NCBI GenBank assembly: GCA_964564435.1
Contig: CAZMAT010000003.1
Span: 96,451 to 160,450, forward strand
From: an uncultured bacterium
Lineage (GTDB): Bacteria; Fermentibacterota; Fermentibacteria; Fermentibacterales; Fermentibacteraceae
Direction: 5' to 3'
Length of the DNA stretch: 64,000 bases
Shown: one piece after another, positions 6,591 to 64,000 of the stretch
How positions within the stretch are numbered: position 1 is the stretch's first letter
How the letters are laid out: every line of letters starts with the position of its first letter
Translations under genes and position numbers: made by a program
The notes under the pieces: model-generated
The model's input: only the letters and a program-made list of their open reading frames with translations
Told to the model about the DNA's origin: nothing
Database searches by the model: none

Positions 6591-7871
6591 TCATTGGGAC
6601 ATGCTCGCCATCGCGTCAAGGAACCTCTTGTTGGACTTGTGCTGGGAGATCTGCTTCTTGAGGAGTTCCATGGCCTCCACGGGATTGAGGTCGACCAGGA
6701 TCTTCCTCATTATCCAGACCTTGCTCAGGGTCTCCTCGTCGAGGAGCAGCTCCTCGCGCCTGGTGCCCGACTTCGTGATGTCGATGGCGGGGAAGACCCT
6801 GCGGTCGGCGAGCCTCCTGTCGAGGACTATCTCGCTGTTGCCGGTTCCCTTGAACTCCTCGAAGATGACCTCGTCCATCCTGCTGCCGGTGTCCACGAGG
6901 GCCGTCCCGACTATCGTCAGGCTACCGCCCTCCTCGGCCTTCCTGGCCGCGCCGAAGAACCTCTTGGGGCGCTGCAGGGCGTTGGAGTCGACACCGCCGG
7001 AGAGGATCTTGCCGGAATGGGGGATCACGGTGTTGTTGGCCCGGGCGAGGCGCGTGATGGAGTCGAGCAGGATCACGACGTCGTGGCCGCTCTCGACCAT
7101 CCTCTTGGCCTTCTCGAGCACTATGTCGGCCACCTGGACGTGGCGCTTGGGGGCTTCGTCGAACGTGGAGCTGATCACCTCGCCCCTGACGTTGCGCTTC
7201 ATGTCCGTGACCTCTTCGGGCCTCTCGTCGATCAGGAGGACGATGAGCACCACCTCGGGGTGGTTTATGGCTATGCTGTTCGCTATGTGCTGGAGGAGTA
7301 TGGTCTTGCCCGCCCGCGGCGGGGAGACTATCAGGGCGCGCTGCCCCTTCCCCAGCGGGGTCAGGAGATCCATGATGCGGCCGCTGAACTCCTCCGAGTC
7401 GTGCTCCAGGATGAAGCGCTCCTTGGGGTAGTAGGGGGTCAGCTCGTCGAAGTTGCGCCGTGTCCTGGCGAGATCGGGGCTCTTCTGGTTGACCGTCTCG
7501 ACCCTGAGGAGGGCGAGGTACTTCTCGCCTTCCTTGGGCTGCCTGACCTGGCCAGATATCGTGTCGCCCGTCAGGAGTCCGAACCGCTTTATCTGAGACG
7601 GGGAGACGTAGATGTCGTTGGTCCCTGGCAGGTAGTTGGATTCGACGGCCCTGAGGAAGCCGTACCCCTCGGGCAGGGTCTCCAGCACTCCCGTCGCGAA
7701 CTCGAGCCCGTTCTTCTCGGTCTGGCTCTCGAGCATCATCTGGATGAGATCTCGCTTCCTGCAACCGGCGATACCCTTGATCTCCATGCTCTTGGCTATG
7801 GCCTGGAGCTCCACCAGCGTCATGCTCTCGAGATCGGAAAGGGAATGACCGTCGAGCGGCTTTTCTACCAT
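6591..7871 (-). CDS. rho: transcription termination factor Rho
   Basis: Full Rho architecture (N-terminal RNA-binding domain, Walker A PPRAGKT, RecA-like core). Start re-picked at [23 protein letters not shown] (ATG at 7871, 426 aa); the track ORF is 51 codons longer. Confidence 0.92.
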
Positions 7872-43350: not shown

Positions 43351-45528
43351 ATGCCCGCACTCACGCTCTCCCTGGTCTGCGCGGCGGCTCTCGGAACTCC
43401 CGAGCTCCGCGCGACGAGGGTCGAAGAAGCCCCCTCAGTGGACGGCCGCCTGGACGAAGCCGTCTGGGCCCTGGCCGGGCCGGTGCCCTGCCTCTTCACA
43501 CAGTACGATCCCGAGAACGGCGCTCCCATGTCCGTGGAGACCGTGATCTCCATCCTTTACGACGACGAGGCTGTCTACTTCGGCTTCGAGCTGTCGGATC
43601 CCGATCCCGCGGGGATGATGGAGGCCCTCTGCCCGAGGGACGACTACGCCACGGGCGAGTGGATCGCCGTGCTCCTGGACACCTGGGGCGACGGCCGGGA
43701 GGCGTCGAGCTTCGAGGTCAGCCTGGCCAACTCGCAGCTCGATTCGAGGATAAGCCCGTTCGGCAACTGGGACTACAGCTGGGATGCGGTATGGAAGAGC
43801 GGCACCTGCCGCACTGACAGCGGCTGGTCGGCCGAGATCGCAATTCCCTTCAGCTGCCTGCGCTTCTCAGGGTCGGAAGGGGAGCAGCCCTGGACCGTCA
43901 ATTTCCAGAGGATCAGAGGCGCGACCAGGGAGAACGGCTGGTTCGTGCTGTCCGATACACAGCAGATGGCCCGGCTGGAGACATTCGCCCCCATCCGCGG
44001 CATGTCGGGGGTCGACCGCTCGCTGGGCATCGAGTTCCGTCCGTACGGGTCGGCGAGGCTGCTGAGGACTGCCGAGGCGGACTCGTGGAACTCCGATCCG
44101 GATGCCGGACTGGACGTCAAGATAGGGATCTCCAGCGGAGTAGCGCTGGATCTCACCGTACTCCCCGACTTCGGACAGGTCGAGGCCGACGAGGCGGAGA
44201 TGAATCTCTCGCACTTCGAGCTCTTCCTCGACGAGCGCAGGCCGTTCTTCATGGAGTCGGAGGACATCTTCGAGATGCCGTTCCACATGTTCTACTCCAG
44301 GCGGATAGGCGCCGCCGCCCCCAACGGCGAGGTCACCCCTATAGCCGGCGGGTTCAAGCTTTCCGGCAACCTCGGCGGCGGGTACAGGTTCGGCCTCCTC
44401 GACGCGGTCACCTCGTCGGTCTCGGAGGACTCCGTCACCATCGAGCCTGCGGCCAACTACTCGATCCTCAGGGCGATGCGTGAATCAGGCTCCTACGACT
44501 ACGTCGGCGTCGCGGCGGTCGACCGCTATTCGTGGGCCCAGGACGGCATCCCCGCGGCCGAGAGTCGCGCGTTCGCCGTGGACGGCAGCATCCTGATCCC
44601 CGGCAACCATCTCCTGCACGGGGAGGTCGCGGGCTCCTCGGGCACCGGCCTCGAGAGCGACGGAGCTTACGAGATCTCGATGAGCAGGGTGAGGAGCACG
44701 TTCACGTATGACGGCGGCTTCTCGTACGTCGGGGAGGACTTCGACGTCAACGCCACGGGCTTCACGACCCAGACCGGCTACTGGGACGGATGGGCCAGCG
44801 CCTACCGCTCGCTCGCACCGGGAGGTTTCATAAGCAGGGCCGGCTACGGCCTCTCGGCCTACTACGCGGAGCTGGACAGCGGTGAGATCACAAGCAGGAA
44901 CATCTCCGCAGACGCCGACGCAAGCCTGCCGAGCGGAGCGAACTTCGGAGGAGGCGCCGGACTCGACGGGCGCACGTTCGACCGGTACGAGGGCCCTTCG
45001 GGGCGCTGGTACGACGGCACTGCATCCGTGTACGCCTATGCCGGCACGGGCAGGTTCCATGGCATGAGCCTCTCAGCCGATGCGGGCACCGGAGGGTACT
45101 GCAACGGCGGCAGCTACGTCGACTGCGGCCTGCATTACTCGATCAGGCCATCCGAGCCGCTCGTCCTCTCGCTCGAGGGCGACTGGTACAGGACCGAAGG
45201 CGCGGACAGGTACAACTGGGAGGCCGAAGAGTGGGACGTCAGGGACACGGACTGGCGGTCGCTGGTCTTCAGGGCCGGGTACATGTTCGGCCCCGACATG
45301 GACGTCAGGCTGTTCTCCCAGCTCTCGGAGTTCGAGTCGGACTTCGCGCTGACGGGGGAGACGGAGAGCGGGGAGCTCGCCGCCAACATGCTCTTCTCCT
45401 GGCGCTACAGGCCCGGCAGCATGCTGTACCTGCTCGGGGAGAACCGGTTCGAGAAGGAGGCCGACGGCGGGTTCGGCTCCCCGGACCTGGGCCTCTATGC
45501 GAAGCTGACCTGGTTCCTCCCCGTCTAG
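43351..45528 (+). CDS. secreted DUF5916-like protein with N-terminal CBM9-like domain
   Basis: Signal peptide MPALTLSLVCAAALG. VDGRLDEAVWA...FTQYDPENGAPMSVETVISILYDDEAVYFGFELSDPDP resembles the carbohydrate-binding family-9-like fold. GGGAGG RBS before ATG 43351; the track ORF is extended from 43015. Confidence 0.55.
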   Translation: MPALTLSLVCAAALGTPELRATRVEEAPSVDGRLDEAVWALAGPVPCLFTQYDPENGAPMSVETVISILYDDEAVYFGFELSDPDPAGMMEALCPRDDYATGEWIAVLLDTWGDGREASSFEVSLANSQLDSRISPFGNWDYSWDAVWKSGTCRTDSGWSAEIAIPFSCLRFSGSEGEQPWTVNFQRIRGATRENGWFVLSDTQQMARLETFAPIRGMSGVDRSLGIEFRPYGSARLLRTAEADSWNSDPDAGLDVKIGISSGVALDLTVLPDFGQVEADEAEMNLSHFELFLDERRPFFMESEDIFEMPFHMFYSRRIGAAAPNGEVTPIAGGFKLSGNLGGGYRFGLLDAVTSSVSEDSVTIEPAANYSILRAMRESGSYDYVGVAAVDRYSWAQDGIPAAESRAFAVDGSILIPGNHLLHGEVAGSSGTGLESDGAYEISMSRVRSTFTYDGGFSYVGEDFDVNATGFTTQTGYWDGWASAYRSLAPGGFISRAGYGLSAYYAELDSGEITSRNISADADASLPSGANFGGGAGLDGRTFDRYEGPSGRWYDGTASVYAYAGTGRFHGMSLSADAGTGGYCNGGSYVDCGLHYSIRPSEPLVLSLEGDWYRTEGADRYNWEAEEWDVRDTDWRSLVFRAGYMFGPDMDVRLFSQLSEFESDFALTGETESGELAANMLFSWRYRPGSMLYLLGENRFEKEADGGFGSPDLGLYAKLTWFLPV

Positions 45529-45550
45529 TCCGGTGAGTCGGGTGAGTCCG

Positions 45551-45744
45551 GTGTCAGAGGAAAAAATGTAAAGTAATCAGGCTTTTGGAATAGAAGACCG
45601 AAATGTCTTGAGAAATAACGTATTAAAGCACTATATGATCGATGCAACCCATTGCCTGTCTTTTGTTTTCAGGATTCTTGGATTGCATCTTCTTGAGGGT
45701 CCGATTACACGATTCTGATTACTTTACATTTTTTCCTCTGACAC
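45551..45744. mobile_element. MITE-like element: perfect 30-bp terminal inverted repeats flanking a 134-bp AT-rich core
   Basis: gtgtcagaggaaaaaatgtaaagtaatcag (45551-45580) is the exact reverse complement of 45715-45744. The core is ~38% GC against a ~68% GC background, has no ORF, and lies 9 nt from the 3' end of tRNA-Ser. Confidence 0.55.
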
Positions 45745-45753
45745 CGACCGATG

Positions 45754-45844
45754 TGGCGGAGGGGGTGGGATTCGAACCCACGGACCCCACTAGGGAGTCA
45801 ACGGTTTTCGAGACCGCCCCGATCGACCTCTCCGGCACCCCTCC
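45754..45844 (-). tRNA. tRNA-Ser (anticodon CGA)
   Basis: 91-nt reverse-strand cloverleaf: acceptor GGAGGGG/CCCCTCC, anticodon loop CTCGAAA, long variable arm, T-loop TTCGAAT, encoded CCA. Closely resembles E. coli tRNA-Ser. Confidence 0.85.
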
Positions 45845-46019
45845 GCACGGCCCCGAATATCCGCTTTCGGGCCCCCTCGTGCAAATCCGGTCTTGCCCTG
45901 CCGGATGACTCGGTCTATTTTCACCCTGCTGTGACCAGATGCCGGAACTTCACCCTGCATCGCGGGTTGTTGATGGCAGGTACGTCAGTGAGACTCAACT
46001 CGGCTCTGCTGGAGGAACG

Positions 46020-62423: not shown

Positions 62424-64000
62424 CCCAGGGCTTCCCCTCCGATTCCGAGATAGCCGCCGCGGCCAGCCCACTGCCGATCACCGAAGTCGCCCGAAGGCTC
62501 GGCCTCGCCGGCGAGGATCTCGTCCTCTACGGGGACGACAAGGCCAAGGTCCGCCTCGACGCGGTGCGCAGGAGGTCGAAGGGCCAGGGGCGACTGGTAC
62601 TCGTCTCCGCCATGACCCCGACACCCGCCGGCGAAGGCAAGACCACCACCTCGATCGGCCTGGCGCAGGGGCTGGCCAGGCTCGGCCTGAAGTCCTGCAT
62701 CGCCCTGAGGGAGCCCTCGCTGGGCCCGATATTCGGGATGAAGGGCGGGGCCACCGGAGGAGGCTACTCGCAGCTACTGCCGGCGGAGGACATAAACCTC
62801 CACTTCACCGGCGACCTCCACGCCATCACCTCGGCGCACAACCTGCTCGCGGCGGCCATAGACAACCACATCTACTGGGGCAACCGCTCGGGCCTCGACC
62901 CGCGGACCGTGCGCTTCCACAGGGTTCTCGACATGAACGACAGAGCCCTGCGCAACATCATCATCGGGCTCGGTGGCAGGACCCAGGGTGTCCCCCGGGA
63001 ATCCGGGTTCGACATAACCGCCGCCAGCGAGGTGATGGCGATCCTGGCCCTCACCGAGGGCAGGGAGGACCTGAAGGAGCGCCTGTCGCGCATCTTCGTG
63101 GGGCTGACCTACGACGGCGACCAGGTGACCGCGGGCTCCATGGGGGTGTCGGGAGCGATGGGCGTCCTGCTGAAGCACGCCATCAGGCCCAACCTAGTCC
63201 AGACCCTCGAGGGCGTGCCGGCCTTCGTCCATGCCGGGCCCTTCGCCAACATCGCCCACGGATGCAATTCGATCATCGCCACCAAGATGGCCGTCGGCCT
63301 CTCGGACTGGGCCATCACCGAGGCTGGTTTCGGCTTCGACCTCGGAGCCGAGAAGTTCTTCGACATCAAGTGCAGACACGGCGGGCTCGATCCTTGCATC
63401 GTCGTCCTGGTAGCGACCTGCCGCGCCCTCAAGATGCACGGCGGCAAGAAGAAGGACCTCGACCCTCCCGACCCGGATGCCGTGGCGAGGGGGCTGCCCA
63501 ATCTCGAGAAGCACCTCGAGAACATCGGGAAGTTCAGCCTGCCGGCGGTCGTCTGCGTGAACAGGTTCCCTTCCGATACGCCCGAGGAGCTCGGGGTGGT
63601 CACCCGCAGGTGCGGGCAGCTCGGCGTCCCGGTATCTGTCGGAGAGGGATTCCTGCGCGGGGGGGCTGGCATGGTCGACCTCGCCGAGAAGGTGGTCGCA
63701 TCAGCTACCTCCTCCGATGCGCACTTCAAGCCCCTGTACGACTGGTCATGGCCCGTCGAGAAGAAGGTCCAGACAGTCGCGAAGGAGATCTACGGGGCAG
63801 AGTTCGTGGACTACTCGCCCCAGGCCCGGAAGGACCTGGCGACCATACGGAAGTTCGACTACTGCTCCCTGCCGGTCTGCATCGCCAAGACGCAGAACTC
63901 CCTCTCCGACAACCCCGAGCTCCTCGGGCGCCCCAAGGACTTCGTGGTGACGGTGAGGGAGATACAGATAGCCGCCGGCGCCGGTTTCGTGATCCCCATC
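62414..64000 (+). CDS. fhs: formate--tetrahydrofolate ligase (partial, continues beyond window)
   Basis: Reading frame gives ...TQGFPSDSEIAAAASPLPITEVARRLGL...AMTPTPAGEGKTTTSIGL...VHAGPFANIAHG, classic FTHFS motifs, with no stop before 64000. There is no ATG/GTG/TTG within 35 codons upstream; the start is provisionally placed at CTG 62414, overlapping the small upstream gene. Confidence 0.8.

Follow-up and report, generated by a model that had tools for sequence, protein, structure and literature searches.

A REPIN-like doublet of terminal inverted repeats beside tRNA-Ser(CGA) in Fermentibacteria, and its probable partner, a RAYT-like HUH/Y1 gene

The element and its surroundings

The AT-rich element found at positions 45549-45746 of the 64-kb stretch of DNA that was analysed (the window) is a REPIN-like relic, one copy of a family dispersed in Fermentibacteria. 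By analogy with described systems, we consider it, with a probability of about 0.75 that includes the mechanism proposed below, to be a non-autonomous doublet of the terminal inverted repeats (TIRs) of a RAYT-like HUH/Y1 "TIRtron", i.e. the TIR-type counterpart of a REPIN. The terms TIRtron, for RAYT-like genes with long TIRs, and TIRYT, for the proteins they encode, are those given in passages of Di Nocera et al. 2013 (PMC3733652).

The whole element is 198 bp long and has 38% GC in a window of about 66% GC, with values of 0.36-0.41 inside it vs about 0.65-0.70 on either side. The window contains two copies, and no more, of the 30-nt sequence GTGTCAGAGGAAAAAATGTAAAGTAATCAG, one at 45551-45580 on the forward strand and one at 45715-45744 on the reverse strand; none of 100 dinucleotide-preserving shuffles of the window had a match. 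The inverted repeat stays perfect for one more CG on each side, which gives 32-nt arms (45549-45580 and 45715-45746), and these 32-nt termini are the conserved ends across all relatives compared. The left TIR (45549-45580, forward strand, CGGTGTCAGAGGAAAAAATGTAAAGTAATCAG) is identical to that of the P0003-type TIRYT element, a coding relative described below, and to the termini of loci L004, L006 and L001; the right TIR (45715-45746, reverse strand) is its perfect reverse complement. Between them lies a non-coding core of 134 nt (45581-45714; GC 0.39). Its last 16 positions (45699-45714, forward strand), next to the right TIR, share homology with the full-length TIRYT element at its 3' end, stop-codon region included. 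The 32-nt arm has no internal palindrome, is not self-complementary and contains no GTAG. Folded as a single strand, the element forms a 33-bp stem with a minimum free energy of -82.5 kcal/mol (z = -9.9). An Rfam scan returned the neighbouring tRNA together with sub-threshold matches to plant miRNA-precursor hairpins, the latter because of the long stem alone. The 64-kb window holds a single copy of the element.

The element is preceded by a gene for a 725-aa DUF5916 protein (43351-45528, forward strand; PF19313, with P0121 as a 100% identical match), whose TAG stop codon lies 20 nt ahead of the left TIR. On the other side, a spacer of 7 nt (45747-45753) separates the right end from the 3' end of tRNA-Ser(CGA), a gene with an encoded CCA on the reverse strand (45754-45844; ARAGORN, and 52.5 bits with the Rfam tRNA model) that points its 3' end toward the element. 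With the DUF5916 gene ending at 45528 on the forward strand and the tRNA 3' end facing it, the element is bracketed by convergent 3' ends. An earlier sequence-only reading had described most of this arrangement correctly: the perfect 30-bp TIRs are there, only one CG short on each side, and the AT-rich non-coding core of 134 bp is confirmed, as is the distance of 9 nt to tRNA-Ser(CGA) when counted from the 30-nt TIR (7 nt from the true terminus). Its size of 194 bp holds for the TIR pair and core as then delimited and gives way to 198 bp for the full element, and the genome GC of 68% that it quoted is above the 65.7% measured for the window.

A dispersed family of small doublets

Relatives of the element were recovered with the outer part of the TIR. 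The 20-mer CGGTGTCAGAGGAAAAAAYG was found at 22 loci in a scan of representative genomes, 20 of them in two Fermentibacteria genomes, those of "Ca. Fermentibacter daniensis" Dam_1 and of "Ca. Fermentibacteria" RA.bin127. Two loci from Clostridia MAGs (L032 and L048), also tried as relatives, were rejected, having only the 20-mer in common and no other likeness to the TIR. A 24-mer from the inner TIR had no match in GTDB representative genomes, phage and plasmid collections or viral contigs; it missed the family because the inner TIR is species-specific, and the outer 20-mer alone recovered it. A 23-mer scan of metagenome contigs matched two contigs. The doublets, 196-201 bp in length, number at least 10 in RA.bin127 and at least 12 in F. 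daniensis Dam_1; the set analysed below comprises 20 complete and distinct small elements including the window copy, two more being cut by the ends of their loci. The supposition that the element belongs to a dispersed family of small, non-coding, TIR-bounded elements was therefore right, with copies in two Fermentibacteria genomes.

The 20 cores are 132-137 nt long and have 35-48% GC, and their median pairwise identity is 0.53 vs 0.52 for shuffled sequences. No excess of secondary structure was found in them (mean z about -0.2 to -0.5), and tests for a hidden common structure or for similarity in flipped orientation among the cores were negative. The sequence of the core is thus unconstrained, its length and composition being conserved throughout the family. 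There are a few exceptions to the general dissimilarity of the cores: those of L042a, L042b and L044 are 80-88% identical in unrelated flanks, which shows that whole 197-bp units have been copied to new sites, and L043a and L043b have cores of 88% identity. Within a single genome the cores are for the most part unrelated, so that the majority of copies are very old and present-day mobility may be nil.

None of the 20 copies falls within a gene, and many have a stop codon 2-20 nt away. Eight of them are found 5-15 nt downstream of the 3' end of a tRNA gene, namely tRNA-Ser(CGA), tRNA-Ser(GCT) and tRNA-Phe (two each), tRNA-Ser(TGA) and tRNA-SeC. The eight correspond to five separate tRNA loci, out of about 18 separate sites in all. 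A rough estimate, based on about 44 tRNA genes in a total of roughly 2,300 genes (PMC5030696), puts such proximity far above expectation. A target-site duplication, that is a direct repeat, was found at none of the 20 copies. Instead, the flanks tend to prolong the inverted symmetry, with GTC before and GAC after the element, and GTC is present at 22 of the 40 ends. A one-sided GTC target as in IS608, for which the F. daniensis copies were oriented by the A/T asymmetry of their arms, is contradicted by the subterminal homology of the right end, and GTC/GAC is a symmetric flank preference only.

The window's own organism likely holds further doublets. All 10 Logan contigs of this species end at position 26-27 of the TIR, as they would in a 31-mer graph if those samples contained further copies sharing the GTC flank and the TIR, and from these unitig breaks inside the TIR we infer their presence.

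The coding element and its protein

TIRs of this kind also flank a protein-coding gene. In the complete coding element of L002 (1,121 bp), the left TIR occupies positions 1-32, an ORF of 324 aa positions 108-1082 and the right TIR positions 1090-1121; in L001, a TIR is followed by the start of the same gene. Matching TIRs were found around the coding elements of L002 and L013 (protein P0001), L004-L012 (P0003), L039 (P0004, in RA.bin127) and L049 and L018 (P0009-type, in F. daniensis), the 32-nt repeats standing about 75-107 nt before the ORF and 8-31 nt after it (L002, L013, L018, L023/L039 and L049). A conserved GC-rich hairpin is present in the coding element between its left end and the start codon of the transposase gene. 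No homologue of the TIRYT protein was detected in the window by tblastn.

The 324-aa protein matches the Pfam family Y1_Tnp (2.8e-11), and its H60 and H62 (the HUH motif) and Y119 (the tyrosine of RYIHLNP) are invariant across an alignment of 25 homologues. The nearest NCBIfam model is REP_Tyr_transpos (RAYT, NF047646), with 62.8 bits and thus below the curated cut-off of 80, and the IS200/IS605 TnpA model NF033573 gives only 14.8 bits (E = 0.025; cut-off 55). Toward Bac_DnaA_C, the single sequence has a weak match of 18.9 bits, below the cut-off, and several of its homologues carry a precomputed PF08299 annotation. A search of the PDB with the protein as a single sequence returned no match, a profile being needed; with the family profile, the structures retrieved were DnaA domain IV (3.7e-7) and the E. 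coli TnpArep (PDB 4er8; 0.002).

Wherever the context was recovered, the gene order is fixed (DUF1015, 160 aa, 106/116 aa, the TIR-flanked gene, Peptidase_S49, APH), with homologues of 100%, 82% and 61% identity (P0001, P0004 and P0009), and each of the two Fermentibacteria genomes contains one TIR pair spaced by about 1.12 kb (L049 and L039). The partner is therefore a single-copy gene for a RAYT-like HUH/Y1 protein that keeps one and the same syntenic position in the chromosome. That the full-length element might be multicopy and mobile was considered, on account of contigs ending at TIR termini and of deviant flanks in L003 and L016, and rejected. Because the right flank of L003 is orthologous to the flank of the doublet L038, these two loci are better explained by joining or recombination through the TIR that both kinds of element have in common.

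Age of the insertion

The locus of the window is collinear with its counterpart in RA.bin127 (L035), at 93.1% identity over 6.8 kb, and the element sits at the same place in both. Identity between the two amounts to 100% for tRNA-Ser(CGA) and for the 7-nt spacer beside it, 93% for the intergenic region upstream of the tRNA, 91-94% for the TIRs and 86% and 79% for the third codon positions of the flanking genes, while the core is 76.9% identical in the alignment of the locus (78% pairwise). As the site is shared with L035 and the identity of the core is 76.9% vs 79-86% for third positions, the core drifts at a roughly neutral rate and the insertion predates the split of the species. A third lineage, with a DUF5916 protein of 81% identity, also has the TIR directly after the stop codon (L062/L063). 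Moreover, F. daniensis and RA.bin127 have doublets at orthologous sites downstream of tRNA-Ser(GCT) and of tRNA-Phe, with 73-92% identity in both flanks, and the cores at these sites no longer align. The window copy is hence old and has been at its site since before the related species split.

The sequence-only reading had taken the insertion to be recent from the perfection of its TIRs. This is contradicted by the site between the DUF5916 stop codon and tRNA-Ser(CGA) being occupied in RA.bin127 as well as in the species with the 81% identical DUF5916 protein, and because orthologous sites are occupied in diverged species, perfect TIRs are not evidence of recent insertion. The same reading had set against a mobile element the case of a single copy conserved at orthologous loci in relatives; one half of this was found, since the orthologues do carry the element, and the other was not, the element not being single-copy.

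Arms with an invariant outer and a covarying inner part

All coding elements compared have the same outer 18 nt in their TIRs, CGGTGTCAGAGGAAAAAA, and only 3 of 46 arms depart from this sequence, by one substitution each. The inner part differs between species, and does so in parallel on both arms: changes affecting both arms were observed at five inner positions, and among 23 arm pairs 92.8% of the cells are standard pairs, vs 40-47% after shifting the partner by 1-3 columns. In F. daniensis, one inner position carries an A.A/T.T mismatch in eight of the 10 doublets. The window and L035 differ at two TIR positions on both arms and at a third, the innermost, on one arm only. The paired change at the upstream position agrees with the TIR flanking the TIRYT gene of RA.bin127; at the second paired position, the two RA.bin127 TIRYT arms differ from each other. 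More generally, the TIRs of the window copy and of several others at orthologous sites in diverged species have remained intact and have changed along with those around the TIRYT gene of each species. Such covariation is expected if the arms must pair, or if both must fit one protein whose specificity shifts, and the data fit both. A simple model of decay and replacement fails to explain intact, species-specific TIRs at orthologous sites.

Origin and alternative explanations

The right end of the element is also homologous to a coding element beyond the TIR: by blastn-short, its positions 151-196 match positions 1075-1120 of the P0003 element with 91% identity over 46 nt, reaching 14-16 nt past the TIR. 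This indicates that the side facing the tRNA is the right end, and fits a derivative of the coding element by internal deletion. P0003 and the DUF5916 protein of the window (P0121) are both present in run SRR20818708, and given this co-occurrence and the identity of the P0003 left TIR with the window arms, the cognate enzyme for the window element is probably P0003. The search for a parent IS with matching TIRs, anticipated by the sequence-only reading, thus led to a longer coding element (L002/L013/L039/L049), although in the form of a single-locus HUH/Y1 gene and not of a multicopy DDE-type IS.

In the mechanism that we infer from related enzymes, a doublet would arise from the coding element by internal deletion and would then be mobilised in trans, and rarely, by the TIRYT. 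The substrate would be single-stranded DNA with its two arms paired into a stem of 32-35 bp, and the chemistry a cut-and-paste without duplication, as for IS200/IS605 and RAYT enzymes. The outer 18 nt would serve as the sequence-specific recognition or cleavage site, and the AT-rich spacer of fixed length would help strand opening or the pairing of the arms. Several points weigh against this model. A TIR taken singly lacks the self-complementarity of REPs and of the IS200/IS605 subterminal hairpins, the window shows a single copy, most copies are very old, the TIR terminus departs at one position from the published motif, and the protein scores below the RAYT cut-off.

A different view of the element is that of a host signal, either a bidirectional terminator or an RNA-processing or stabilising hairpin between the DUF5916 gene and tRNA-Ser; the family would then persist for its service in this capacity behind tRNA and protein genes. 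Its position between convergent 3' ends, 20 nt past a stop codon and 7 nt past a tRNA, would suit such a role, as would the locations of the other copies (eight of the 20 at 5-15 nt after tRNA genes, others 2-16 nt after stop codons), and the inner 13-14 bp of the stem followed by an invariant T6 run resemble, on either strand, a hairpin with a U-tract. Intrinsic terminators are compact GC-rich hairpins with a loop of 3-8 nt and a U-tract directly after the stem. From these the element is far removed by its loop of 134 nt, no U-tract follows the complete stem, the T6 run being inside the 3' arm, and a terminator scan found no site at the element. That scan also found no other terminator-like site from the DUF5916 stop codon to the tRNA 3' end, its two sites lying beyond the tRNA at 45900-45966, which speaks for the host signal. 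The same can be said of the TIRs having stayed intact at orthologous sites where the cores have drifted to randomness, suggesting selection at each locus, and of the attenuation of transcription and stabilisation of mRNA reported for REPs and BIMEs in passages of PMC3733652. Nevertheless, termination would require neither the strict conservation of the outer 18 nt nor their identity with the flanks of a transposase gene, and we regard a host signal as an unlikely main explanation of the element. A role in termination or processing would, however, be compatible with a mobile origin, concerning as it does the present function, and is possible as a secondary role. Going further, the doublets might have been domesticated, each locus being maintained by selection instead of decaying as a passenger. 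The single-copy HUH/DnaA-like protein would then recognise about a dozen AT-rich cassettes of fixed length, located by preference immediately downstream of tRNA-Ser, tRNA-SeC and tRNA-Phe genes, with arms preserved and re-tuned genome-wide to the specificity of the protein, by gene conversion restricted to the TIRs or by selection, and spacers free to drift. We regard this as a speculative scenario, more doubtful still; if true, it would mean a host function, for example in DnaA-like local unwinding or in the termination or processing of transcripts from strongly transcribed tRNA genes, and would imply a mechanism that homogenises short dispersed repeats.

The remaining explanations fare much worse. 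In its perfect TIRs, its small size (below 300 bp), its AT-rich non-coding core, its multiple copies and the existence of a longer element with the same TIRs, the element resembles a classical MITE, i.e. a recent internal-deletion derivative of a multicopy DDE-type IS inserted with a target-site duplication. However, the direct duplication of 2-9 bp that the sequence-only reading had proposed to look for is absent from the window copy as from all the set of 20, the partner protein is of the HUH/Y1 type and not a DDE transposase, its gene occupies a single fixed locus, and the insertion is common to diverged species, so that a classical MITE is very improbable. The 3' ends of tRNA genes are common integration targets, and the element adjoins one; an attachment site or the scar of an integrative element had accordingly been suggested as an alternative. 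This was rejected on the synteny with L035, where 93% identity over 6.8 kb leaves neither island nor integrase, and on the orientation of the repeats, which are inverted and not direct, with no duplication of the tRNA end; together with the lack of matches in phage and plasmid collections and viral contigs, these data make the idea hardly tenable. An assembly artefact or a foreign contaminant might be suspected from a GC content about 25 points below that of the host, but the same junction is present in 10 independent Logan assemblies, a complete orthologue exists in an NCBI MAG (L035) and 19 further members of the family are found in two MAGs, and so an origin of this kind is refuted as well.

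Comparison with known systems

The window element and its partner match the TIRtron/TIRYT class and, within it, Y1 subclass 2.1.2, a known but barely studied kind. According to passages of Quentin et al. 2018 (PMC6006769), most TIRYTs belong to Y1 subclass 2.1, and those of subgroup 2.1.2 have a Bac_DnaA_C-like tail. The passages of Di Nocera et al. (PMC3733652) describe moderately abundant TIR families occurring as singles or dimers, and a GGGGWSAS motif in the majority, though not all, of the published TIRs; the TIR terminus GGTGTCAG agrees with this motif at seven of eight positions, with T replacing the third G. The likeness includes a protein of about 320 aa that is RAYT-like, of the HUH/Y1 type, and ends in an HTH resembling Bac_DnaA_C, long non-REP TIRs flanking its gene and the dispersal of the same TIR as dimers, as far as these passages describe the class. 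Fermentibacteria differ in being a new lineage with a new TIR sequence. Moreover, the passages of the two papers do not contain doublets of a fixed 196-201 bp with an AT-rich spacer, 40% of them immediately downstream of tRNA-Ser, tRNA-SeC or tRNA-Phe genes, nor persistence at orthologous sites or species-wide parallel change of both arms, and they report no experiments with any TIRYT.

REPIN-RAYT systems have conserved arms, a highly variable spacer, a single-copy and vertically inherited RAYT and a very slow rate of duplication (10.1101/2021.07.10.451892). The Fermentibacteria system shares with them a Y1 gene that is single-copy, passed on vertically and bordered by the repeat, and non-autonomous inverted doublets that fold into hairpins, have conserved arms around a spacer that varies, and are extragenic and long-lived (PMC3116915; 10.1101/2021.07.10.451892). 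It differs by 32-nt non-palindromic TIRs lacking GTAG, whereas REPs are imperfect palindromes of about 14-25 nt that usually bear a GTAG tag; by spacers of 132-137 nt, above the cut-off of 130 nt that defines REPINs; by about 10-12 copies per 2.2-Mb genome as against hundreds of REPINs; and by a protein with an extra DnaA-like domain that scores below the NCBIfam cut-off for RAYTs. Common to the family and to IS200/IS605 are the HUH/Y1 chemistry, the absence of target-site duplications and a GC-rich hairpin between the left end and the start codon. IS200/IS605 elements have subterminal hairpins and no TIRs, encode a TnpA of about 130-150 aa and are multicopy, whereas here TIRs, a 324-aa protein and a single copy are found. 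Finally, the bacterial MITEs Correia/NEMIS, RUP, ERIC and Nezha are similar in being 70-300 bp long, non-coding and intergenic, with TIRs of 15-30 bp and strong hairpins in transcripts, but they are DDE-mobilised and have target-site duplications and a conserved core, whereas here there are no such duplications, the cores are unrelated and the partner is a HUH protein.

The Fermentibacteria family provides a compact natural data set, with one coding element and about a dozen doublets per 2.2-Mb genome and several species with common insertion sites, in which the invariant outer 18 nt, probably concerned with recognition or cleavage, can be separated from an inner part that changes in parallel. 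It also displays a spacer constrained in length and AT content only, and a strong bias toward the 3' side of tRNA-Ser, tRNA-SeC and tRNA-Phe. It supplies concrete substrates, and predictions, for studying the action of RAYT-like HUH enzymes that carry a DnaA-like domain, and brings to an uncultured phylum the idea, known from REPINs, of non-autonomous elements that are long-lived and inherited vertically. For annotation, it accounts for a conspicuous AT-rich hairpin and for recurrent contig breaks in Fermentibacteria assemblies.

Junction repeats

Two extra 9-nt units (CGGTGAGTC and GGGTGAGTC; 45531-45548, forward strand) precede the left end of the window copy and repeat the flank/element junction AGTC/CGGTG. 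Both end in GTC, the trinucleotide that flanks 22 of the 40 element ends. The orthologous locus L035 is without them and shows an 18-nt gap relative to the window, whereas they are found in all 10 of 10 independent Logan contigs of the window's species. Comparable junction duplications are present at L047a and L030.

Contig joins and breaks at the TIR

In two contigs, the coding element, which carries the TIRYT gene between the same TIRs as the small non-coding doublets, is joined to flanks from elsewhere (L003, positions 1108-1456, and L016, positions 1-164). The right flank in L003 (1108-1456) is orthologous to the flank of a doublet at another locus (L038, 237-266). Recombination between dispersed TIR copies would explain these joins, as would mis-joins through the 32-nt repeat. 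Many public unitigs begin or end exactly at or inside the TIR (Logan contigs L004-L012, L021, L027-L029 and L052-L063), including stand-alone contigs of 1,111-1,129 nt that correspond to the coding element, so that the TIR repeat family is a systematic source of contig breaks in Fermentibacteria assemblies.

Doublets of Ca. Fermentibacter daniensis

A single 66-kb contig of F. daniensis, LKHB01000194.1 (the source of L041, L042, L044 and L050), harbors five or six doublets, which may reflect a local hotspot or a recent burst of copying. Three of them (L042a, L042b and L044) form the only clearly young doublet subfamily, with cores 80-88% identical and a right terminus in which the final G is replaced by A or T. 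At TIR position 26, eight of the ten F. daniensis doublets (L030, L040, L042a, L042b, L043a, L043b, L044 and L045) have AAATAC on one arm and AAAAAC on the other, leaving a conserved A.A or T.T mismatch within the stem. Both TIRs of the coding element of this species carry AAATAC.

Junction repeats at the element ends

At several loci the junction between flank and element (AGTC/CGGTG..., the slash marking the boundary) is repeated in tandem. Two extra 9-nt units are present beside the element of the window (45531-45548), none of which is found at the orthologous RA.bin127 locus L035. The doublet locus L047 carries such repeats at about 1980-1992 and 2189-2215, with one extra unit in L047a and a 14-nt repeat at its right junction, and in L030 (about 6762-6775) the unit is 11 nt long. 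The occurrence of these repeats at independent loci suggests that they are a by-product of end processing, or of slippage where the base of the hairpin lies.

The coding element and other Y1_Tnp proteins

In all species, the stretch separating the left TIR from the start codon of the TIRYT gene contains a conserved GC-rich hairpin, GGCCGGTC-loop-GACCGGCC, with loops that vary. It sits some 60-85 nt inward of the left TIR (L013, 9955-9976; also L018, L023, L004 and L049) and resembles the left-end hairpins of IS200, by which translation is controlled and read-through is blocked.

The annotation of Ca. Fermentibacter daniensis includes a second Y1_Tnp paralogue, the distant P0014 (34% identity). 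Homologues of 291-296 aa are numerous as well, and in many metagenomes a large group of proteins, each about 296 aa long, is encoded on free-standing contigs roughly 1.1 kb in length. P0014 and these ~296-aa proteins may represent further families similar to the TIRtron (the TIR-flanked TIRYT gene), each with its own repeats.

Other features of the window

A GC-rich inverted repeat without relation to the TIR family is present at 63579-63601 / 63908-63930 (23-nt arms, 96% complementary, spaced 306 nt). On the strand opposite the tRNA-Ser(CGA) gene, positions 45757-45809 (+) give a sub-threshold match to the Rfam family Plastid-psbl-rps4, scoring 37 bits where the gathering score is 68. This match most probably reflects the sequence of the tRNA itself.
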